A DNA stretch of 64,000 nucleotides, taken from assembly GCF_022846255.1 (NCBI RefSeq), contig NZ_AP025682.1; one strand, 5' to 3'. Shown here one piece after another: positions 1,844 to 14,328 of the stretch (position 1 is its first letter; every line of letters starts with the position of its first letter). Made by a program: the position numbers and the translations under genes. The notes beneath the pieces were generated by a model. It made no database searches. It was not told the origin of the DNA and saw only the letters and a list, made by a program, of their open reading frames with translations. The DNA is from Escherichia coli. GTDB taxonomy: Bacteria; Pseudomonadota; Gammaproteobacteria; Enterobacterales; Enterobacteriaceae.

Positions 1844-2635
1844 TTACATCGCGTTCAGACGTTTTTGCGCCTGTTTAGCGCCATCAGTACCAGGGTATTT
1901 ACTGATAACCTGCTGGTATACGGCTTTCGCTTTTGCGGTGTCACCTTTGTCCTGCATGATGACGCCGACTTTAAACATCGCATCTGCAGCCTTCGGTGAC
2001 TTCGGATAGTTTTTCACTACCGAAGCAAAATAATACGCCGCATCATCTTTTTTACCCTTGTTGTAGTTTAACTGACCCAGCCAATAATTGGCGTTTGGCA
2101 GGTAAGTTGAATCAGGGTAATTTTTGATGAAATTCTGAAATGCCACCATTGCGTCATCCTGGCGGGATTTATCCTGCACCAGCGCAATAGCTGCATTGTA
2201 ATCCGTGTTTGCATCACCGCTTTTCACCGGCGCGCCAGCATTCGCAGTACCAGCATCAGCTGTCGGCGTCGTTGATGCCGCCACACCGCTTTGATCGCCG
2301 CTGGTTGATTGCGCCGCTGCACCACCGCTGCTGAGGCTGTCGATCTGCAACAGGATCTGCTTTTGCCGCTCCACGACCTGATTCAGTTGATACTGATTTT
2401 CCTGAATCTGACCACGCAGGGAATCAATATCGGATTGATTATCAGAGAGTTGTTGCTGGAGTTGGGTTAAAAGCTGGCTGTGAGCATTAGAAATACGCTC
2501 AAGTTGAGTGACGCGGTCTTCGACCGAGCCTGAGCCGACACTACTGATTGGTGCCTGAGCAAAAGCGGCCCAGGGGGCCGCTATACCAACCAGTAACGAC
2601 AGACTCAATAGTTGATGTCTGAAGTTACTGCTCAT
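1844..2635 (-). CDS. cpoB: Cell division coordinator CpoB (YbgF), TPR periplasmic protein
   Basis: 263-aa ORF; translation matches remembered CpoB, last gene of tol-pal cluster. Confidence 0.95.
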   Translation of the reverse strand: MSSNFRHQLLSLSLLVGIAAPWAAFAQAPISSVGSGSVEDRVTQLERISNAHSQLLTQLQQQLSDNQSDIDSLRGQIQENQYQLNQVVERQKQILLQIDSLSSGGAAAQSTSGDQSGVAASTTPTADAGTANAGAPVKSGDANTDYNAAIALVQDKSRQDDAMVAFQNFIKNYPDSTYLPNANYWLGQLNYNKGKKDDAAYYFASVVKNYPKSPKAADAMFKVGVIMQDKGDTAKAKAVYQQVISKYPGTDGAKQAQKRLNAM

Positions 2636-2644
2636 GCAATTCTC

Positions 2645-3190
<546 letters not shown>

Positions 3191-3200
3191 TTAATTATTA

Positions 3201-4493
3201 TCACAGATACGGCGACCAGGCAGGGAATTTGACCTGTCCATCAGTTGCCGGAAGACGCGCTTTGAAACGCCCATCTGTAGAAACCAAATTCAGCACGGAT
3301 CCCATCCCCTGAGAAGAGCTGTAGATTACCATAGTGCCGTTAGGTGCCAGACTTGGCGTTTCATCCAGGAACGTGGACGACAGAACTTGTACGCCTCCCG
3401 TTGCCAGATCTTGTTTGGCAATGTGCTGCTGCCCACCGTTGGAGCTGACCATTACCATAAATTTACCGTCGCTGCTGACATCCGCATCCTGGTTCTGCGA
3501 ACCTTCCCAGGTAATACGTTGTGGCGCACCGCCGTTGATATTCACTTTATAAACCTGCGGACGACCGGCCTGGTCAGAAGTAAATGCCAGGTTCTGGCTG
3601 TCCGGGAACCAAGTCGGTTCGGTATTGTTACTGCGACCATCAGTTACCTGGCGGATCTGACCAGAAGCCAAATCCATTACGTACAGGTTCAGGCTACCGG
3701 TTTTCGACAAGGCGAATGCCAGTTTGCTGCCGTCTGGCGAGAATGCAGGTGCACCGTTGTGACGCGGGAATGAAGCCACCTGACGTACAGCGCCATTTGC
3801 CAGCGTCTGAATAACCAGCGCGGAACGACCGCTTTCGAAGGTCACATAAGCCAGTTTAGAACCGTCTGGTGACCACGCCGGAGACATCAGCGGTTGCGGT
3901 GAACGGTGAACGACAAACTGGTTGTAACCGTCATAGTCAGATACGCGCAGTTCATACGGGAACTGACCGCCGTTAGTCTGAACAACGTAGGCAATACGGG
4001 TACGGAACGCACCTTTAATACCGGTCAGTTTTTCAAATACTTCGTCACTGGCGGTATGACCTGCATAACGCAGCCACTGCTTGTTCACTTTGTACGAGTT
4101 CTGAGCAAGTACAGTACCCGGTGCGCCGCCAGTGTCAACAAGTTGATAAGCGACATTGTAAGAACCATCCGGATTCGGAGTGACCTGACCGACAACCACA
4201 GCGTCAATGCCCAGCGCGGACCATGCAGCTGGTTGTACTTCCTGCGCACTACCCGGCTGCTGTGGCAGACGAGCACGATCTAACGGATTAAATTTACCGC
4301 TGTTACGCAAGTCAGCAGCAACGATGCCGCCAATATCTTCAGGTGCCGCACCAGGCCCCGCCCACTGGAAAGGAACAACACCAATAGGACGACCGGAATC
4401 TACACCGCTGTCGATCACAATGCGGACTTCAGCATGCAGAACTGATGCCCACAGTATGAGAAAACCAAATGCTACTCGTAATGCCTGCTTCAT
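3201..4493 (-). CDS. tolB: Tol-Pal system periplasmic beta-propeller protein TolB
   Basis: Translation [30 protein letters not shown]...; start taken at second Met of the track ORF. Confidence 0.95.
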
Positions 4494-4625
4494 CATATCT
4501 CCCTTATCTGGACCGATGGCCCACGATAATTTAGCAGAATGTTAACAAACTAAAATACACAAAACTACCAGAACCCCGTGGCAACCGGTGCCTGATGTTG
4601 ACCGTCGGAACAGTCAACATCGCGA

Positions 4626-5891
4626 TTACGGTTTGAAGTCCAATGGCGCGTTTTTGAACACTTCATATACTGCCTGGCTTGGTGGTTTCGGGATCTTCGC
4701 AAGTTTAGCTGCTGCCAACGCAGCCTGACAAAGTGCGGGATCGCCACCTTCAGGTTTGATATCCAGTAACATACCATCGGGTGCCAGTTTTATGCGCAGC
4801 GTACAGGTTTTGCCTGCATAGGACGATGCGTCATAGAACTTACTTTCGATAGCAGATTTAATCTGCCCGGCATAGTTATTGATATCGGCCCCTGATGCGC
4901 CATTGTTTTTAGTATTACCACTCCCGGCTGGCGAAGCATTGTTCCCTTTCGCCCCTCCCCCCGTTTTCGGTGCATTCTTACCAGAGCTTAGCTCACCGAA
5001 AATATCATCTGCCTCTGCGGCAGCTTTTGCTGCAGCGGCTTTTTCAGCTGCTGCTTTTGCCGCTGCCGCTTTTTTGTCTGCGGCGGCTTTTTCTGCCGCT
5101 GCTTTCTTATCAGCTGCTGCCTTTTCAGCAGCCGCTTTTTCTGCTGCTTTTTTGTCGGCTGCCGCTTTCTCTGCTGCCGCTTTCTTATCAGCTGCAGCCT
5201 TTTCAGCAGCCGCTTTCTTCTCAGCTTCTGCTTTGGCTTTTTCAGCAGCTTCAGTTGCCGCTTTCTTTCTTGCTTCAGCTGCAGCTGCTTCTGCCGCTTC
5301 CGCTTTCTTCTTCAGTGCCGCCGCGGCTGCCTCGGCTTTTTTCTGCGCTTCGGCTGCGGCTTTGGCGGCTTCTGCTTCTGCTTTTTTCTTCGCGTCTGCA
5401 GCCGCTTTCTTCGCTGCTTCTTCCGCAGCTTTTGCATCCGCTTCAGCCTTCGCTTTAGCATCTGCCGCCGCTTTCGCTGCCGCTTCTTCCGCTTGCTTCT
5501 GCTTTAACTCGGCCTGTTTTGCGGCTTCTTCAGCCTGCTTTTTCTGTTCCTGAGCCGCTAACCGCTCTTTCTCAAGTTGCTTCAGGCGTTCCTGTTCAGC
5601 CGCTTGTTTCTCACGCAGTTCTTCAGCAGCCTGCTGTTCCTTCATCTTGCGCTGCTCATCAGAACGCTTCGCGCTTGATTCCTGGCTTTGCATGCGTTTG
5701 TACTGCTCAACTACCGCACCTGAATCAACCATGACAGCGTCGATGGACGAACCACCGCCGCCTCCGGCTGAAGCTTCTATATTCTCATCGAACGAACTCC
5801 AGATCAGCGCCGCAAATAAGATGACATGCAGCACTGCTGAAATAATTATCGCCCGTTTGAGCTTGTCGTTTTGTTCGGTTGCCTTTGACAC
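4626..5891 (-). CDS. tolA: Tol-Pal system protein TolA
   Basis: 421-aa ORF with N-terminal TM segment, long Ala/Lys/Glu-rich helical domain II and C-terminal domain III. Confidence 0.95.
   Translation of the reverse strand: MSKATEQNDKLKRAIIISAVLHVILFAALIWSSFDENIEASAGGGGGSSIDAVMVDSGAVVEQYKRMQSQESSAKRSDEQRKMKEQQAAEELREKQAAEQERLKQLEKERLAAQEQKKQAEEAAKQAELKQKQAEEAAAKAAADAKAKAEADAKAAEEAAKKAAADAKKKAEAEAAKAAAEAQKKAEAAAAALKKKAEAAEAAAAEARKKAATEAAEKAKAEAEKKAAAEKAAADKKAAAEKAAADKKAAEKAAAEKAAADKKAAAEKAAADKKAAAAKAAAEKAAAAKAAAEADDIFGELSSGKNAPKTGGGAKGNNASPAGSGNTKNNGASGADINNYAGQIKSAIESKFYDASSYAGKTCTLRIKLAPDGMLLDIKPEGGDPALCQAALAAAKLAKIPKPPSQAVYEVFKNAPLDFKP
4990..5600 (-). repeat. Imperfect tandem nucleotide repeats encoding the Ala/Lys-rich TolA domain II
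   Basis: Recurring gctgc(c/a)gc.. ttt(c/t)t.. units on the plus strand; protein repeats of KAAAEKAAADKKAAA type. Confidence 0.8.
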
Positions 5892-5955
5892 TCTCGGTTT
5901 CCAAAAACTGTTCGCCTGTTACCCGCTCTCTTTCAAGCAAGGGAAACGCAGATGT

Positions 5956-6384
5956 TTAGATAGGCTGCGTCATTAAACCAACCGATTTCACACCCGCACT
6001 ATGTAACAAGTTCAGTGCTTTAATTATTTCATCGTAAGGCACATCTTTTGCGCCACCGATCAGAAAGACCGTTTTCGGGTTGGCCTTGAAACGGCTGGAC
6101 ACTTCCGCCACCACCTGCTCTGGTGGTAAACGCTCCAGACGATCTTTCTCAACCACCACGGTGTACTGACCAATACCAGACACTTCAACAATCACTGGCG
6201 GATTATCGTTACTGCTCACCGCCTGTGATTCAGTAGCGTCTGGCAGATCGACCTCCACGCTCTGGGTGATGATGGGCGCTGTCGCCATAAAGATCAGCAA
6301 CAGCACCAGCAGTACGTCCAGCAACGGTACAATGTTGATTTCGGACTTGAGATCGCGACGACCTCGTCCACGCGCTCTGGCCAT
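5956..6384 (-). CDS. tolR: Tol-Pal system protein TolR
   Basis: 142-aa ORF, ExbD/TolR-like, in operon position. Confidence 0.95.
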   Translation of the reverse strand: MARARGRGRRDLKSEINIVPLLDVLLVLLLIFMATAPIITQSVEVDLPDATESQAVSSNDNPPVIVEVSGIGQYTVVVEKDRLERLPPEQVVAEVSSRFKANPKTVFLIGGAKDVPYDEIIKALNLLHSAGVKSVGLMTQPI

Positions 6385-6387
6385 GGC

Positions 6388-7481
<1,094 letters not shown>

Positions 7482-7580
7482 TTTACATCCCGGTAATGCA
7501 ACAAAAGTTAGAGCTTTTAAACGCTGCTACTATACGCGCGCGATTGAGGTTTGGGAATGAGGGCAAGTTAAGGGAGCGTA

Positions 7581-7616
7581 AAAATTTATGGGCCTGACTC
7601 GGCCCATAAATTTTTA
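7581..7616 (-). terminator. Rho-independent terminator after ybgE (end of cydAB-cydX-ybgE unit)
   Basis: tttatgggcc-tgactc-ggcccataaa hairpin flanked by A/T runs. Confidence 0.6.
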
Positions 7617-7630
7617 AAGAGAATTCTGAT

Positions 7631-7924
7631 TTAAAAGAAGAAGAAAATCAGCCCGACAATGAGAACAATATCGGCAAGCAATGGGCAAAAAATCCCTTGC
7701 CAGAGAACCTTCTGCGGACGAAAGCCCACGCCGTGAATCACACCAGCACAGACGGCCCACATAAGCAGTAAACCATGCCAGATTTCCAGTTCACTGGTCT
7801 TCGCGGCGAAACGTGATGGGTCCCAAAACATACATCCTGCTAACAGAAGTGCCATCACGAAGGAAAGCGCCCGCAGGGGGCGCTTGTCCATTACCGCATA
7901 CAAGGTTGCGATAATCTTACTCAT
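7631..7924 (-). CDS. ybgE: Small membrane protein YbgE (cyd operon)
   Basis: 97-aa hydrophobic ORF; its ATG overlaps the cydX stop. Confidence 0.85.
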   Translation of the reverse strand: MSKIIATLYAVMDKRPLRALSFVMALLLAGCMFWDPSRFAAKTSELEIWHGLLLMWAVCAGVIHGVGFRPQKVLWQGIFCPLLADIVLIVGLIFFFF

Positions 7925-8051: not shown

Positions 8052-9191
8052 TTAGTACAGAGAGTGGGTGTTACGTTCAATATCTTCTTTGGTGATACGA
8101 CCGAACATTTTCCAGTAACACCAGGCGGTGTAGAGCAGAATGATCGGTACCAGAACCACCGCAACCCAGGTCATGACGTTAAGCGTCAGCTGGCTGGAAG
8201 TTGCATCCCACATTGTCAGACTTGCGTTCATCATGGTGCTGGACGGCATCACAAACGGGAACATTGCGATACCGGCAGTCAGGATGATGCAGGCCAGCGT
8301 CAGGGAGGAGAACACAAACGCCCACGCGGCTTTATCCATACGTGCAGTCAGGATGGTCAGCAGCGGCAGAACCACACCCAGTGCCGGAATAGCCCACAGA
8401 ATTGGCGTGTTGTTGAAGTTAACCAGCCATGCGCCAGCTTCACGAACCACTTCTTTATTCAGCGGGTTAGAGGCTGCGTAATGGTCCATTGTCGATTTCA
8501 CGACATAACCATCGATACCGTACATCACCCATACGCCAGCCAGTGCGAAGCAGACCAGCGTCACCAGTGCCGCCACCTGAGCCGTTGCACGGGTACGCAG
8601 GTGCAGTTCGCCCACGGTACGCATTTGCAGATAGGTTGCGCCCTGAGTAATGATCATCCCTACGCTCACCACACCTGCCAGCAGGCCGAACGGGTTAAGC
8701 AGCTGGAAGAAGTTACCGGTGTAGTACAGACGCAGATATTCATCAACGTTGAATGGTACGCCCTGCAACAGGTTACCGAACGCTACACCAATCACCAGCG
8801 GCGGAACGAAGCTACCAATGAAGATGCCCCAGTCCCACATGTTACGCCAGCGGGTTTCTTCAATCTTGGAGCGGTAATCAAAACCGACCGGACGGAAGAA
8901 CAAAGACGCCAGCACGAGGATCATCGCCACATAGAAGCCGGAGAACGCAGCGGCATAGACCATCGGCCAGGCAGCAAACAGTGCGCCGCCTGCGGTGATC
9001 AGCCAAACCTGGTTACCGTCCCAGTGTGGTGCGATGGAGTTAATCATAATTCGACGCTCGGTGTCGTTACGACCGAGGAAACGGGTGAGCATGCCCACCC
9101 CCATGTCGAAACCGTCAGTGACTGCAAAACCAATCAGCAGAACGCCAACCAGCAGCCACCAGATAAAACGCAATACTTCATAATCGATCAT
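8052..9191 (-). CDS. cydB: Cytochrome bd-I ubiquinol oxidase subunit II
   Basis: 379-aa polytopic membrane ORF. Confidence 0.95.
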   Translation of the reverse strand: MIDYEVLRFIWWLLVGVLLIGFAVTDGFDMGVGMLTRFLGRNDTERRIMINSIAPHWDGNQVWLITAGGALFAAWPMVYAAAFSGFYVAMILVLASLFFRPVGFDYRSKIEETRWRNMWDWGIFIGSFVPPLVIGVAFGNLLQGVPFNVDEYLRLYYTGNFFQLLNPFGLLAGVVSVGMIITQGATYLQMRTVGELHLRTRATAQVAALVTLVCFALAGVWVMYGIDGYVVKSTMDHYAASNPLNKEVVREAGAWLVNFNNTPILWAIPALGVVLPLLTILTARMDKAAWAFVFSSLTLACIILTAGIAMFPFVMPSSTMMNASLTMWDATSSQLTLNVMTWVAVVLVPIILLYTAWCYWKMFGRITKEDIERNTHSLY

Positions 9192-9206: not shown

Positions 9207-10775
9207 TTAGCGTGCCGGCTGAGTAGTCGTGGAAGACTGCTCAAAGTGATAGCGACCGGTTTTCAGGCTGCTTGGGCCGAGGCGTGCAAACTTGAACATT
9301 AAGAACAATTCTGCCACCAGGAACAGGGTATACAGGCCGCAAATCAGCACCATTGAGAAGATGAGATCGCCTGCGGTCAGTGACGAGTTCGCCACAGCTG
9401 TCGGCAGCACTTCACCGATAGCCCACGGTTGGCGGCCATATTCAGCCACGAACCAGCCCGCTTCTACAGCAATCCACGGCAGCGGAATACCGTACAGCGC
9501 GGCGCGCAGCAGCCATTTTTTCTCGCCAATGCGGTTGCGGATGACACTCCAGAAAGAGAGCGCAATGATTGCCAGCAGCAGGAAGCCACACGCCACCATG
9601 ATACGGAACGCGAAGTACAGCGGCGCTACACGCGGAATGGAGTCTTTGGTTGCCTGTTGAATCTGAGCTTCAGTCGCATCAGCCACGTTTGGCGTATAGC
9701 GTTTCAGCAGCAGACCGTAACCGAGATCTTTCTTCATGCTATTGAACTGGTCACGAACGGCCTGGTCGGTAGAACCAGAACGCAGTTGTTCGAGCAGAGA
9801 GTACGCCTTCATCCCGTTACGAATGCGTTCTTCATGCTGCACCATCAGTTCTTTCAGGCCGATAACTGGAGTATCCACGGAACGCGTTGCAATGATGCCC
9901 AGCGCGTAAGGGATCTGGATCGCAAATTTGTTCGTCTCCTCTTCCTGATCAGGAATGCCGAACAGAGTAAAGGCAGCAGGTGCAGGTTGCGTTTCCCACT
10001 CGGCTTCGATAGCAGCCAGTTTGGTTTTCTGCACGTCGCCCATTTCGTAACCGGATTCATCACCCAGAACAATAACAGACAGAACGGCAGCCATACCGAA
10101 GCTGGCAGCGATAGCAAAGGAGCGTTTAGCGAAGGCGAAGTCACGACCTTTCAGCATATACCATGCGCTGATACCGAGGATGAACATCGCGCCAGTCACA
10201 TAACCAGAAGCTACGGTGTGAACGAATTTCACCTGAGCAACCGGGTTAAGCACCAGCTCGGAGAAGCTCACCATCTCCATACGCATAGTTTCAAAGTTGA
10301 AATCGGACGCGATTGGGTTTTGCATCCAGCCGTTTGCAACCAGAATCCACAGTGCGGACAGGTTTGAACCGAGCGCCACCAGCCAGGTGACACACATATG
10401 CTGAACTTTACCCAGACGATCCCAACCGAAGAAGAACAGACCTACAAAGGTGGATTCGAGGAAGAAGGCCATCAGACCTTCGATTGCCAGCGGCGCACCG
10501 AAGATATCCCCTACATAGTGGGAATAGTAAGACCAGTTAGTCCCGAACTGGAACTCCATGGTCAGACCGGTAGCCACACCCAGAGCAAAGTTGATACCAA
10601 ACAACTTGCCCCAGAACTTGGTCATATCTTTATAAATCTGTTTGCCGGAAAGGACGTAGACCGTTTCCATAATGGCCAGCAGGAACGCCATACCGAGCGT
10701 CAGTGGCACAAAAAGGAAGTGGTACATCGCGGTCAAGGCAAACTGTAAGCGCGACAGTTCGACTATATCTAACAT
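9207..10775 (-). CDS. cydA: Cytochrome bd-I ubiquinol oxidase subunit I
   Basis: Translation [20 protein letters not shown]...; start taken at second Met of track ORF (522 aa). Confidence 0.95.
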
Positions 10776-11450
10776 CATGACTCCTTGCTCATCGCATGAA
10801 GACTCCGAGAGTGAACCCCGTTAGAAAGGGTCACACGCATGCCCCAATACAAAATTATTTGCTCGCCTCTATCGTTGCCATTTCATCAAAAGAGGAAAAG
10901 ACAATGATAAAAAAGTTACAAATGTGTTAATGAATAAACCAAATTGATCCCGTAATTATATTACGCCGCAAAATCCTTACAATAAACAGGTTTTTATTGA
11001 GCAAATTTGCATTTTTCGACAGTGATCAATTTATAGCGAAATTGTCACGATCTCACCAATTTGATCTACAACAATTTATCGTGTTTTGCAGATTTTTTTC
11101 AAGAATTAAAAATTGATTTATATCAAAATCAACCACATATGTTAATTATGTGTGAATCATGAGCCACTGGTAACTTTATTGTTAATTTATTGTAACAAAA
11201 CAGCACGGTAAATTACCCACATGGAAATATATAGATAAAAAACCAGTATTTTATTTAACAAAGCCGCTTTATCGACTTTTTATAATACTAATTAGTTAGA
11301 GTAGCTACTTTATTGCCATTTTACATAACATATTTTTATCAACGTTAATTGATTGTTGTCTTTATGAGCAACGTACTGTAAATCCGTCACTTATTGTTTC
11401 ATTGGTAATAATCACAAGAAGAAATAGATACCTTAGGTATAGTCAGATGG
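10776..11450. promoter_or_regulatory. AT-rich region upstream of cydA; probably includes the cydAB promoter/regulatory region, extent uncertain
   Basis: Non-coding AT-rich DNA immediately 5' of cydA; cydAB is known to have a long complex upstream control region. Confidence 0.4.
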
Positions 11451-12103
11451 AACAAGGATTTTTAAAATAAAATATATATGGTATTAATATTTCCCGATCT
11501 GTATTCAATGATTCGCTCAAAGATTGAAAATCAAGAGAAATTGTTATAGCAGTGATACGAAACAACAAAACGGAATGATTGCCAGCCGTTAGAAAACACC
11601 GGACACTCTCGTGTAAAAAGCTACCCTGTCTATGGATATAGCGATATCCACTCATCAAGCGTGGACTGAATGATATTCAGCTCCATATGGGCGGAAACCT
11701 GGAGGATAAATACGATTTCGCCGTTGGAATCAAGGTTGTTCTGCAATATCTACCAGACTGCTTCAATTTATCTGTTTTGGCAGTGCAATAATCTTAATTT
11801 AACTATTTGAAGATGATGATATTGTCAGATGCCAGAAATTTAGTAATCTGGAGAACCGTGTCTATGATCACTAAATATTAAAGTAATAGTCGATAATTCA
11901 GTAGCACATCGGGTAATATAACGTATTGATACATAATCATATTAAAAAATTCGTGATTAAATAACATAAGAATATGTTTTATTATCATTAAAAAACCTTC
12001 TATTTCCATCATCCTTAAGATAATAAAACAGCGAATGATGGATAACTTGACCAGAAAAACAAGCAAGCATATAAAATTAAAAAATATGATTCCACTTTCA
12101 TTT

Positions 12104-13219
12104 TTATAAAATGGCATCGTGAAGAGCGAGTTGATAATGCTGCAATGCATCAGCGTCCTGTCCAGCAGTTTCATAAATTTTGGCAATGTTATAATAGGAG
12201 TTAGCGCGCGTTGTCGCCGCATTTACCCCACTCGCTAACGAGATCGCTTTACGATTTGCCCAAATTGCTTCCGCTATGTTGCCATTTTTCTGATACGCCA
12301 GACCCAGGTTACTAAATGCCTGTCCGTAATTGCCGTCTAATTCTGTTGCCTGTTGGAAGAGTTGAATGGCTTGCTCAAGTTGACCGGTTTTATAAACAGC
12401 TTCACCTTCGCGATTATATTTTCTTGCCAGTTGAGTATCTCCACTGTTTTGCATCGCAGGCGAAGCCGGAGCTGAAGAGTCCGTCGCAGGCATTATCACA
12501 GTGGCTAAATCCCTGACGTCTAATGTGGTGTCGTTAAAATTGGCGCTGGTAACAGAGTTGATATCTTCAAACTCGCCGTTTGGATTGAGTTTAAACACGG
12601 TCCAGATGTTCCCTCGTTTTCCAGCAGGGACACTATAACTACGTACCAGGGAGCTCCCTACATAAACAAACACTCTTGCCTTACTGGCAGAGAGATAATT
12701 ACTGTTGGGCAACCCTTTATTGCTATAGTCCTGCACGGCATAGATGTAACTTTCACCAAAATGCTTTTTGCTGATAGTGACAGTTTCTGGTCCATAGCTA
12801 TCCGTATCATCAACATCCAGATTGGCATCAGTTCCCTCTTTACTATCAAAATAGATATGTCCGCCAGGGAAGATCAAATGCGAATCAAGATCAAAAGGCT
12901 TTTCGCCCCAGCTCAAAACTACACGCATGCCATCCAGATTCGTCATCACCGGACTGATAGCATAAGTCATGCCAGCGCACGGACATTTGACCACCAGATT
13001 GGAATACCCCTCTTTTTTGACGATTAATAGAGCATCTTTATTATCAGCAAATGAAGTCCCCAAACTAATGCTGCCCGAAGTATTTGTGGTTCCAGAAACA
13101 GATTGTGCGCCATTGCGTTGCAGCGTCATCGATGCTCCTTCAATGCGTTTATCTTTCACTGTCGCACTTAAAATATCGATATTTACATCGGCCGCATAAA
13201 CGTCCGAATTTATACCCAT
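12104..13219 (-). CDS. Hypothetical protein, probably exported: N-terminal beta-rich region (PEGA/carboxypeptidase-regulatory-like, then a region with DLDSHL and LDVDDTDSYGPE motifs), low-complexity linker, C-terminal TPR repeats. Possible N-terminal extension to 13267 with no canonical start
   Basis: 371-aa ORF in track; TPR-like helical repeats near C-terminus (AFSNLGLAYQKNGNIAEAI..., YYNIAKIYETAGQDADAL); in-frame upstream codons encode a signal-peptide-like KKKIVLPVALALMGINSDVYA-ADV. Confidence 0.7.
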   Translation of the reverse strand: MGINSDVYAADVNIDILSATVKDKRIEGASMTLQRNGAQSVSGTTNTSGSISLGTSFADNKDALLIVKKEGYSNLVVKCPCAGMTYAISPVMTNLDGMRVVLSWGEKPFDLDSHLIFPGGHIYFDSKEGTDANLDVDDTDSYGPETVTISKKHFGESYIYAVQDYSNKGLPNSNYLSASKARVFVYVGSSLVRSYSVPAGKRGNIWTVFKLNPNGEFEDINSVTSANFNDTTLDVRDLATVIMPATDSSAPASPAMQNSGDTQLARKYNREGEAVYKTGQLEQAIQLFQQATELDGNYGQAFSNLGLAYQKNGNIAEAIWANRKAISLASGVNAATTRANSYYNIAKIYETAGQDADALQHYQLALHDAIL

Positions 13220-13357
13220 CAGGGCCAGAGCAACCGGCAGAACAATTTTCTTCTTGTATAAATGCTTTTACAGAACGGAGAGGGGATATTTTGCCGGGCA
13301 TTATTGCGCAGAAGATGGGAAAAAAGCAGTGGGCAAACTTTTCAGATTAGTGCCCGA

Positions 13358-13458
13358 ATAAAAAAGGCCATCATAAGATGGCCAACCATGTCGAAACCGA
13401 CAGCCCTTCGCCCCTCCTGTAGAGGGAAGCGGCGAGGGCTATTTCTTATTACAGATAT
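13358..13458 (-). ncRNA. sdhX: sucD 3'-UTR, expected position of the 3'-UTR-derived sRNA SdhX (RybD), ending at the sucD terminator
   Basis: Region directly 3' of sucD stop on minus strand, ending in hairpin ggccatc-ataa-gatggcc plus U-run (13358-13383); SdhX is known to derive from the sucD 3'-UTR. The sRNA sequence itself was not checked from memory. Confidence 0.55.
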
Positions 13459-14328
13459 TTATTTCAGAACAGTTTTCAGTGCTTCACCGATATCCGCCAG
13501 GCTGCGAACGGTTTTCACGCCTGCGGCTTCCAGAGCAGCGAATTTCTCATCCGCAGTCCCTTTACCACCGGCAATGATCGCACCTGCGTGACCCATACGT
13601 TTGCCTTTCGGCGCAGTCACACCAGCGATGTAACCCACAACTGGCTTGGTAACGTGCTCCTTGATGTACGCCGCTGCTTCTTCTTCAGCGCTACCGCCGA
13701 TCTCACCGATCATCACGATCGCTTCGGTCTGCGGATCTTTTTCGAACATTTCGAGGATGTCGATAAAGTTAGAACCAGGGATCGGGTCGCCGCCGATACC
13801 GACACAGGTCGACTGACCGAAACCGTAATCCGTGGTCTGTTTAACCGCTTCATAGGTCAGCGTACCGGAACGGGAAACGATACCCACTTTACCCGGTTTG
13901 TGAATGTGACCCGGCTGGATACCGATTTTGCATTCCCCCGGGGTGATAACGCCTGGGCAGTTCGGGCCGATCATACGAACGCCTGCTTCATCCAGTTTCA
14001 CTTTCACCGTCAGCATATCCAGCGTCGGGATGCCTTCAGTGATGGTGATAATCAGTTTGATGCCTGCATCGATAGCTTCCAGAATGGAGTCTTTGCAGAA
14101 CGGTGCTGGTACGTAGATAACAGAGGCGGTAGCGCCAGTAGCAGCAACAGCTTCACGCACGGTGTTGAACACCGGCAGGCCGAGGTGGGTAGTACCGCCT
14201 TTACCTGGGGTTACGCCGCCAACCATTTTAGTGCCGTATGCAATGGCCTGCTCTGAGTGGAAAGTCCCCTGGCTACCGGTAAAGCCCTGGCAGATAACCT
14301 TGGTGTTTTTATCAATTAAAATGGACAT
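13459..14328 (-). CDS. sucD: Succinyl-CoA synthetase alpha subunit
   Basis: 289-aa [48 protein letters not shown]. Confidence 0.95.

Follow-up and report, generated by a model that had tools for sequence, protein, structure and literature searches.

The sucD-cydA interval of non-ST131 phylogroup B2 Escherichia coli: a catalogued haplotype with a probably degenerating TPR-protein gene

Layout of the sucD-cydA interval

The window analyzed here is a 64,000-nucleotide stretch of Escherichia coli DNA in which two conserved genes, cydA and sucD, enclose an interval of 2.68 kb ending at position 13458. This interval is made of about 1.3 kb of AT-rich DNA and of one ORF of 371 codons. The features of the locus, most of which are read on the minus strand, are the following.

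9207-10778, minus strand: cydA (cytochrome bd-I subunit I), the left conserved flank, recognized as an ORF and from PGAP annotation in relatives
10779-11157, minus strand: cydAB control region in common with K-12 (379 bp, GC 0.335), delimited by K-12 homology
11158-11415: upstream extension, foreign to K-12 and common to the O157:H7-type and ST131 haplotypes (GC 0.287)
11416-12103: AT-rich spacer of the TPR-bearing haplotypes, devoid of long ORFs (GC 0.323) and homologous to the ST131 spacer
11621-11722, plus strand: relic of glmS/mutS (methylaspartate mutase S subunit, residues 69-102), located by tblastn
12104-13219, minus strand: remaining ORF of the TPR gene (371 codons, GC 0.445, GC3 0.414)
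12120-12132: junction of a 259-bp deletion, where window position 12126 joins position 8890 of the ST131 haplotype (L007) to position 9150
13193-13255, minus strand: former signal-peptide codons, KKKIVLPVALALMGINSDVYA, from alignment to the intact ST131 allele
13256-13357, minus strand: spacer separating the TPR gene from the sdhX terminator, the former promoter/5'UTR region, collinear with relatives
13358-13458, minus strand: sdhX (RybD), an sRNA gene in the 3'UTR of sucD, matching the sdhX annotated in K-12 at 97% identity
13459-14328, minus strand: sucD, the right conserved flank, an ORF with 97.1% identity to K-12

A previous sequence-only reading of the window had stated that K-12 carries mngR, mngA and mngB at this site and had proposed that these genes are missing here between conserved flanks. 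This description was found to be accurate: the order in MG1655 is sucD-sdhX-mngR-mngA-mngB-cydA, none of the three mng genes gives a BLAST match anywhere in the window, and both flanking ORFs are in place, with cydA reaching 98.6% identity to its K-12 counterpart and 99.7% to that of ST131. The presence of a non-K-12 interval was likewise correctly perceived, but its end had been set at 13357 while it runs to 13458, the missing part (13358-13458) being sdhX. In alignment, the homology to K-12 stops at 13360 and restarts at 11157, and about 2.2 kb alone are therefore foreign to K-12. The sdhX assignment relies on an element of about 100 nt located in the 3'UTR after sucD, on its Rho-independent terminator (hairpin at 13366-13383) and on its K-12-like sequence; SdhX is an sRNA that depends on Hfq and arises by processing of the sucD 3'UTR (PMC6393394). 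An Rfam scan of positions 10500-13700 at E<=1 returned zero matches, sdhX included. The adjoining spacer (13256-13357) is collinear with both the sdhX-TPR spacer of Pseudocitrobacter and the mngB-TPR spacer of ST131.

About 1.3 kb of AT-rich, stop-dense DNA had also been pointed out in the earlier reading, and this was confirmed. Segment 10779-12103 displays a GC content of 0.319, while the window as a whole stands at 0.513 and the flanking genes at 0.525-0.552; each of its reading frames contains 17-41 stops per 441 codons. It consists of the cydAB control region and of a decayed spacer containing a methylaspartate mutase relic. The control region accounts for about a third of the AT-rich DNA and includes two FNR-type sites, one perfect (TTGAT-N4-ATCAA, 11113-11126) and one with a single mismatch (11061-11074), whose role in this region we presume from established knowledge of cydAB regulation. 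Positions 10779-11415 are 91% identical to the O157 sequence. The glmS relic, 51% identical over 35 aa (tblastn, E 6.7e-5), is collinear with the O157 island and carries a stop and a frameshift; the ST131 spacer contains the same relic, which matches the O157 glmS DNA with an E value of 1.8e-8. Spacer 11416-12103 has no PGAP annotation in relatives. Its small ORFs, including one of 114 aa at 11878-12222, which PGAP likewise leaves unannotated in relatives, were taken as chance occurrences.

The TPR protein and the lesions of the window allele

The single gene delineated earlier at 12104-13219 on the minus strand (371 aa) is indeed the sole long ORF of the interval. It had been described as encoding an unrecognized exported TPR protein, and neither adjective could be retained. 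In about 1,100 complete genomes, PGAP labels the gene 'tetratricopeptide repeat protein', and the exact window protein is present on 143 contigs in NCBI; the family itself has no characterized function, and literature searches on DUF2135 and on the WP_ accessions found nothing.

The intact protein, as encoded by the ST131 allele, is 397 aa long and comprises a signal peptide, a transthyretin-like domain, a TerD-like β-sandwich related to DUF2135, three TPRs and a capping helix. The window ORF retains the transthyretin-like domain, the β-sandwich and the three TPRs, and is devoid of both the signal peptide and the capping helix. At least three tandem 34-residue TPRs were detected by profile, and TPR is the only Pfam assignment (residues 280-383 of a 387-residue read-through); Pfam and NCBIfam taken together match TPR alone, all matches being far under the curated cut-offs. 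The Pfam domain CarboxypepD_reg was found in 3 out of 20 family members. For the protein and 20 relatives, Pfam gave no match to TerD and none to DUF2135 at E<=10. BLASTP nevertheless relates the protein to the DUF2135 protein YfaP of K-12 (E 3e-8, 26% identity over 130 aa) and its JGI name is YfaP/DUF2135. The AF2 models reach pLDDT values of 90.8 and 93.7, and a β-sandwich of the TerD fold was recognized. A PDB sequence search with the N-terminal family profile gave no match, and PADLOC gave none.

A signal-like N-terminal segment was observed in all 32 aligned family members, and the intact protein would be a periplasmic or secreted adaptor whose TPR groove would bind a peptide partner. Acidic residues conserved in the family alignment (DLD, DVDD and GPE) suggest metal binding, and the TerD-like domain probably binds Ca2+. 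The TPR gene is adjoined, in 23 of 45 loci, by a gene for a secreted CE4 polysaccharide deacetylase; because this gene follows it in many other Proteobacteria, the TPR protein may act on the cell envelope. No relic of the CE4 neighbor was found in the E. coli or Enterobacterales loci, and the neighboring genes on two metagenomic contigs carrying TPR homologs were uninformative.

The window allele is damaged at both ends. In the intact ST131 allele, the signal peptide reads MKKIVLPVALALLGMNAGAYA and is followed, past the cleavage site, by AD. In the window, the original start codon (13253-13255) has changed from ATG to AAG and the Shine-Dalgarno sequence (13263-13267) from AAGGA to AAGCA, a lesion seen in 8/8 window-type alleles read. 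Since both elements are mutated, the signal peptide cannot be translated from a canonical start. The window ORF begins instead at residue 13 of the former signal peptide and reads MGINSDVYAAD, its ATG (13217-13219) replacing a TTG exactly in the window-type alleles. Judging from the sequence, the product of this allele is without a translatable signal peptide and would thus not qualify for Sec export, contrary to the description given earlier. At the other end, the 259-bp deletion, whose junction displays a CTGGCG microhomology, removed the last 21 codons of the gene together with its terminator hairpin. The capping helix (H384-396 in the 397-aa allele), conserved in homologs, is deleted as a result, the window protein ending with ALHDAIL. 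The C-terminal motif Y-x-x-A-I-x-R-hydrophobic(V/M/L)-K/R, kept in distant homologs, is gone as well.

Distribution and history of the haplotype

Both window junctions were found in approximately 545 of the 5,426 complete E. coli genomes (about 10%), the sdhX-TPR junction alone in 546 and the junction of the 3' deletion in 542. Carriers include LF82, F11, Nissle-type strains, clone D i14 and APEC O2:K1:H7. A second arrangement, in which the TPR gene coexists with mngRAB, is revealed by an mngB-TPR junction in 565 complete genomes, which represent the ST131 clone, all at least 99% identical and including O25b:H4-ST131; it also occurs on E. coli contigs from gut metagenomes. Among B2 sequence types, mngRAB was reported in ST131 alone by a pangenome study, being absent from non-ST131 B2 (PMC9836092). 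The sucD-cydA interval exists in three states in E. coli, that of O157:H7 being a 13-kb methylaspartate-pathway island. Haplotypes diverge more in sucD and in the 5' and 3' ends of the TPR gene; this raised divergence and the mosaic structure show frequent homologous exchange between haplotypes. The interval described here is the standard sucD-cydA haplotype of non-ST131 phylogroup B2 E. coli and is mostly catalogued. The sequence-only reading had reserved the case where the arrangement would prove to be a common, well-annotated state with a characterized gene: it is both common and annotated, in about a tenth of the complete E. coli genomes, but the gene is not characterized. The finding is in that sense an ordinary one, the absence of mngRAB from non-ST131 B2 being already published.

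Other species were scanned with a 10-sequence alignment and the occurrences given here are those among the matches listed. The order sucD-TPR-cydA was observed in Enterobacter sp. BIGb0383, Pectobacterium fontis and P. zantedeschiae, and TPR-cydA in P. brasiliense; Pseudocitrobacter displays sucD-TPR-mngRAB, and the family is patchy across Proteobacteria. The position of the TPR gene next to sucD in Pectobacterium, Enterobacter sp. and Pseudocitrobacter indicates that this adjacency is old. It is more likely that mngRAB, rather than the TPR gene, is the inserted element. Searching the locus of K-12 and that of O157 by tblastn and blastn revealed no relic of the TPR gene.

We consider it probable that the window carries a standard, not recently inserted, haplotype of non-ST131 B2 strains, in which an old sucD-TPR adjacency is preserved and the TPR gene is degenerating. 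On the minus strand, the order would be sucD, sdhX, a short spacer, the gene of a Sec-exported protein, an AT-rich spacer with a relic, the cydAB control region and cydA. The AT-rich spacer would keep the remnant of a lost methylaspartate-pathway island. The sucD-TPR adjacency would be ancient in Enterobacterales, and mngRAB, found in K-12 and most E. coli, would be an element of variable presence whose insertion between sdhX and the TPR gene most likely never took place in the lineage of this haplotype. Degeneration would have proceeded through mutation of the start codon and Shine-Dalgarno sequence and deletion of the capping helix and terminator.

A rather unlikely alternative is that the ancestor was organized as sucD-sdhX-mngRAB-TPR-cydA, as in ST131, and that the sdhX terminator recombined with a similar terminator-like element downstream of mngB, with loss of a 5.56-kb segment containing mngRAB. 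The window lacks exactly positions 2103-7660 of the ST131 haplotype, and the junction falls in a 12-nt string, GATGGCCTTTTT, common to the hairpins GGCCATCTTATGATGGCC and GGTCATCTCCGGATGGCC; in ST131, a terminator-like copy upstream of the TPR gene, GGTCATCTCCGGATGGCCTTTTTG, would permit recombination with the sdhX terminator. Furthermore, mngRAB is present in most E. coli, and metagenomic contigs combine it with a TPR allele in which the 259-bp deletion has already occurred. However, past the junction, the spacer and signal-peptide region is only 57-82% identical per 100-bp block to ST131 and L093, with a dS of 0.84, so that the direct parent cannot have been the observed haplotype with mngRAB and TPR. 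At most 3 of the 5,426 genomes match the junction query a second time, which counts against a window-like spacer surviving apart from sdhX without excluding one. In another genus, Pseudocitrobacter, the TPR gene directly follows sdhX and the spacer is collinear, and the window state is common to all the diverse non-ST131 B2 lineages; the mngB-TPR junction region is clonal in complete genomes. The simplest form of this alternative, a deletion from the ST131 arrangement itself, was our first reading and was dropped on account of the spacer divergence, the clonality of the ST131 junction and the synteny in other genera.

A second alternative, which we consider unlikely, concerns the state of the gene: the window allele would be functional, either through the new ATG at 13219, giving a cytoplasmic protein, or through a near-cognate codon (ATT, 13244-13246), giving a shortened signal peptide. 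The 371-codon ORF has no internal stop in the window and is still open in 6/8 window-type alleles read, and the change of TTG to ATG creates a start just where the old one vanished and could be compensatory. Pairwise dN/dS values among window-type alleles range from 0.14 to 0.69 and are mostly close to 0.2; they are unlike those of a long-dead pseudogene but leave the matter unsettled, as mosaic recombination between haplotypes can yield such values. Against a functional allele, no Shine-Dalgarno-like sequence could be read ahead of 13219, the signal-like N-terminus is universal among the aligned family members, the gene has lost its terminator and the conserved capping helix, and sister lineages very commonly carry nonsense or truncated forms, with internal stops flagged in the ERP001 and Ec15103 alleles and a doubly truncated 289-aa form on at least 1,000 contigs. 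Among the usual marks of a pseudogene, the loss of translation signals and conserved parts is observed in the window, but neither dN/dS values near 1 nor internal stops are. In the reading that we favor, the 371-codon ORF is most likely a young pseudogene or, at best, would encode a non-exported and destabilized product.

Horizontal acquisition or replacement had been suggested in the sequence-only reading from the AT bias. The variability of the locus implied by this suggestion is borne out, O157:H7 representing a third state. The more specific scenario, in which an acquired AT-rich cassette made of the TPR gene and its spacer replaced mngRAB at a recombination hotspot, could draw on the low GC (0.445 for the gene and 0.32 for the spacer, against 0.51 for the window), the mosaic divergence between haplotypes and the patchiness of the family, but is very improbable: the TPR gene coexists with mngRAB in ST131 and on metagenomic contigs and is therefore neither a replacement for nor an alternative to it, its place beside sucD is kept in three other genera, and no integrase or transposase ORF, no tRNA and no bounding repeats other than short chance-level ones were found at the locus. 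Among these island-like traits, deviant base composition is observed, but the gene is not absent from this site in related genera, and part of the deviation is due to the cydAB control region, which is native, AT-rich in itself and makes up a third of the AT-rich DNA.

With the probable reading of an old, resident and degenerating gene, sucD-TPR adjacency represents the old state around which mngRAB and the methylaspartate island came and went, and the CDS that annotation calls in hundreds of genomes of ExPEC, AIEC and probiotic strains is what is left of a secreted protein of 397 aa after truncation at both the 5' and the 3' end. The present work provides a first domain description for a widespread family without known function and, with the CE4 deacetylase neighbor, one functional lead. 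A broader proposal, which we regard as unlikely, is that the intact family constitutes an uncharacterized periplasmic envelope factor associated with a secreted CE4 polysaccharide/peptidoglycan deacetylase and long linked to sucABCD-cydAB in Enterobacterales. Within E. coli B2, it would be intact, alongside mannosylglycerate catabolism, in ST131 alone and decaying in other ExPEC, and it might serve an ST131-specific envelope or colonization trait.

Comparison with known systems

The K-12 locus shares with the window the sucABCD, sdhX and cydABX-ybgE flanks as well as the 379 bp of the cydAB control region. It differs by its mannosylglycerate PTS, hydrolase and repressor genes, by a 496-bp REP-containing segment and by the absence of the TPR gene or of any relic thereof. 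The ST131 haplotype (strain 2/0, O25b:H4-ST131) is closer, with the TPR gene, the AT-rich spacer with its glmS relic and the cydA side in common, the central part of the TPR gene being 100% identical. Unlike the window, however, it retains mngRAB, the start codon, the Shine-Dalgarno sequence, the 397-aa product and the terminator, and the two are highly divergent in the spacer on the 5' side of the gene and in the stretch coding for the signal peptide. Pectobacterium spp. and Enterobacter sp. BIGb0383 display the same sucD-TPR-cydA order and orientation in an interval of about 2.1 kb, but their proteins are full length, 62-63% identical, and the spacer with the glmS relic is absent.

At the protein level, K-12 yfaP belongs to the yfaA-yfaT-yfaS-yfaQ-yfaP (α2-macroglobulin) operon whereas the gene of the window is flanked by sucD and cydA and has no such neighbors, and, in contrast with TerD proteins, no ter genes are located nearby. 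The β-sandwich is here fused to a transthyretin-like domain and to TPRs, unlike in YfaP/DUF2135 and TerD-fold proteins. Compared to three-TPR domains with a capping helix (Hop/Sti1 TPR1/2A, SGT and CTPR3), the protein is bacterial and presumably periplasmic or secreted, and the window allele lacks the helix. Finally, the O157:H7 methylaspartate/mesaconate island resides at the same sucD-cydA site (PMC4682846). It differs from the window by 13 kb of intact catabolic genes with neither the TPR gene nor mngRAB, but occupies the same interval, and a fragment of its glmS survives, decayed, in the window spacer.

Layout and composition of the sucD-cydA interval

The locus runs in the reverse of the K-12 map orientation, with its genes on the minus strand, and is laid out as follows.

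10778, minus strand: upstream edge of cydA, the left flank
10779-11157: cydAB control region, homologous to K-12
11158-11415: spacer part common to the O157-type control region
11416-12103: spacer part common to ST131 only
11621-11722, plus strand: decayed glmS/mutS fragment (methylaspartate mutase S subunit), also found at about 9550-9620 of L007, the ST131-haplotype locus
12104-13219, minus strand: TPR gene, the single long ORF between cydA and sucD, 371 aa
13358-13458: sdhX (97% identity to the K-12 copy; terminator, 13366-13383)
13459-14328, minus strand: sucD, the right flank

In MG1655 the order is sucD, sdhX, mngR, mngA, mngB, 846 bp and cydA, and the sequence-only reading was right on the mng genes there. 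In a BLAST comparison with the MG1655 stretch, the window matches K-12 from sucD as far as 13360, where sdhX ends, and from cydA as far as 11157, 379 bp upstream of that gene. A stretch not shared with K-12 does therefore exist, but these limits return sdhX (13358-13458), an sRNA described in PMC6393394, and the cydAB control region (10779-11157), both taken as part of an accessory insert, to the ordinary backbone. Two FNR-type palindromes are predicted in the K-12-conserved part of the control region (11061-11074 and 11113-11126, 52 bp apart), one perfect (TTGATTTATATCAA) and the other with one mismatch. The cydA ORF opens with two successive ATGs (10773-10778), giving a mechanical ORF of 523 aa versus the 522 aa assigned by PGAP in relatives. 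At the position of the B2 TPR gene, K-12 carries downstream of mngB a 496-bp segment with REP-like palindromes (7115-7610 of L002, the MG1655 locus), in which no relic of the TPR gene was detectable.

The description of the interval as AT-rich and stop-dense was accurate, since the GC content is 0.319 across 10779-12103 and each frame holds 17-41 stops per 441 codons. The TPR-gene ORF has a GC content of 0.445 (GC3 0.414), compared with 0.525-0.552 for the flanking genes and 0.513 for the whole window.

Haplotypes of the locus in E. coli

The window arrangement is a common, already catalogued state of non-ST131 B2 strains. At least 80% of segment 11160-13355 is present in 1,104 of the 5,426 complete E. 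coli genomes. That the arrangement might be common and annotated, a possibility raised in the sequence-only reading, is borne out by the 546 genomes sharing the window-type junction between sdhX and the TPR gene and by the PGAP name given to the gene in carriers, "tetratricopeptide repeat protein". The window-type 3' deletion junction is present in 542 genomes, and carriers include LF82, NRG 857C, F11, clone D i14, a Nissle derivative and APEC O2:K1:H7. The exact TPR protein of the window is encoded on 143 NCBI contigs. In 565 genomes, every one at least 99% identical and one labelled O25b:H4-ST131, mngB adjoins the TPR gene. A pangenome study of ten B2 sequence types places the mngA, mngB and mngR clusters in ST131 only (PMC9836092).

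The proposal of a horizontally acquired cassette in place of mngRAB is unsupported. The ST131 order is sucD-sdhX-mngR-mngA-mngB-TPR-cydA, so that the TPR gene and mngRAB coexist and are not alternatives, and searches for a tRNA, an integrase and bounding repeats at the locus were negative. Compared with the ST131 haplotype, two segments are missing from the window: one of 5,558 bp that corresponds exactly to mngR-mngA-mngB and 97 bp more, and one of 259 bp from the TPR gene's 3' end. What the interval shows is a lineage haplotype that was catalogued before, and its uncharacterised gene is decaying. In a third state, that of O157:H7, neither mngRAB nor the TPR gene is present and the site is occupied by a 13-kb island of methylaspartate mutase, ammonia-lyase and class I fumarase, a pathway described in PMC4682846. 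The glmS fragment of the window (protein-level match, E 6.7e-5) is collinear with this island, and its ST131 copy matches O157 glmS DNA with an E value of 1.8e-8. This collinear relic implies that the B2 ancestor carried a methylaspartate island, later lost, in the stretch separating the TPR gene from cydA.

The mng genes of ST131 and K-12 (L007 versus L002) are 88% (mngB), 94.7% (mngA) and 94.2% (mngR) identical. This divergence is well above that of the flanking sucC and cydA (98.4-98.6% identical), and the mng alleles would be either far older than the strain split or imported.

The TPR gene: decay in the window and the intact family

The intact allele encodes 397 aa, starting MKKIVLPVALALLGMNAGAYA|AD and ending ...AYTEKNKPSYEEAIARVKTKM. 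The window allele has AAG as its initiator codon and AAGCA in place of the Shine-Dalgarno sequence AAGGA, and its annotated ORF uses a new ATG within the former signal peptide; the label "exported" consequently fails for this allele. Through a deletion of 259 bp at a CTGGCG microhomology, the allele has also lost a terminator hairpin and ends in HDAIL* instead of the final 21 codons. The lost tail motif, Y-x-x-A-I-x-R-hydrophobic(V/M/L)-K/R, is retained even by homologues with as little as about 35% identity, which marks the short end as the derived one. The AAG lesion is common to all eight window-type alleles read, two of which are flagged as pseudogenes with internal stops. W332* (TGG to TAG, TPR-frame codon 332; P0272 / Ec15103, L098) and further 5' damage give a 289-aa form truncated at both ends; annotated on at least 1,000 contigs, this fragment points to a large sublineage in which pseudogene decay has gone further. 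The uninterrupted window ORF and pairwise dN/dS values of 0.14-0.69 speak against a long-dead pseudogene, although a mosaic history can yield such values. The window allele is probably a young pseudogene or a non-exported remnant.

Pfam identifies three TPRs and nothing else in the intact protein, and 3 out of 20 relatives match CarboxypepD_reg over their initial 60-80 residues. BLASTP aligns it with K-12 YfaP (DUF2135; E 3e-8) over RxVLSW-DLDxH-DxD-GYGPE. The AlphaFold models are confident, the predicted pLDDT being 90.8 over the whole protein and 93.7 when the N-terminal module is modelled. At E<=1e-3 this module finds 5,509 representative relatives, often located C-terminally in very large proteins. 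Outside Enterobacterales, the downstream same-strand neighbor is a secreted CE4 polysaccharide deacetylase (PF01522) in 23 of 45 loci (L022 7243-8367 and 22 more, e.g. L030, L051, L071, L080 and L085) from Pseudomonas, Dyella, Luteibacter, Cupriavidus, Methylovulum and others. The two genes form a conserved unit that is missing from Enterobacterales loci, and neither a CE4 deacetylase gene nor a relic of one was found in the E. coli locus. The intact protein would be a periplasmic adaptor, binding a partner peptide through its TPR groove and Ca2+ through its TerD-like domain; it probably acts on the cell envelope. The small residual interest lies in this uncharacterised family and its intact retention in ST131.

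Direction of the mngRAB difference

Between the two B2 types, cydA and sucC diverge by 0.25-0.44% and sucD by 2.3%. The middle of the TPR gene is 100% identical, and the spacer with the signal-peptide codons shows 57-82% identity per 100-bp block (dS 0.84). Human gut metagenome contigs (L093-L095) are recombinants with an ST131-like left part and a window-like right part: they are identical to ST131 from sucC to mid-TPR, including mngRAB and the intact start, and window-like from the 3' part of the TPR gene onward, including the 259-bp deletion (product 383 aa). These divergences and the recombinant contigs together indicate a mosaic region shaped by homologous exchange.

From the sdhX terminator to the TPR gene, the window spacer is collinear with that of Pseudocitrobacter. 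The ST131 spacer between mngB and the TPR gene (L007 7620-7650) opens with a diverged copy of the sdhX terminator, GGTCATCTCCGGATGGCCTTTTTG versus GGCCATCTTATGATGGCCTTTTTT in the window (13358-13383). This copy looks like a scar of an older sdhX-TPR adjacency into which mngRAB would have inserted. That mngRAB never inserted in the window haplotype is the likelier account, and is favored over a secondary deletion between the two terminator copies, which we regard as rather unlikely. The observed ST131 haplotype cannot have given rise to the window by a mere deletion, in view of the spacer and signal-peptide divergence, the sucD divergence and the recombinant contigs.

In a scan of one genome per species, the family was seen widely in Proteobacteria and its Enterobacterales homologues occupied the same site as in the window, among the matches listed. 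The order is sucD-TPR-cydA in Enterobacter sp. BIGb0383, Pectobacterium fontis and P. zantedeschiae, and TPR-cydA in P. brasiliense. Pseudocitrobacter vendiensis, with a TPR protein of 76% identity, has sucD-TPR-mngR-mngA-mngB.
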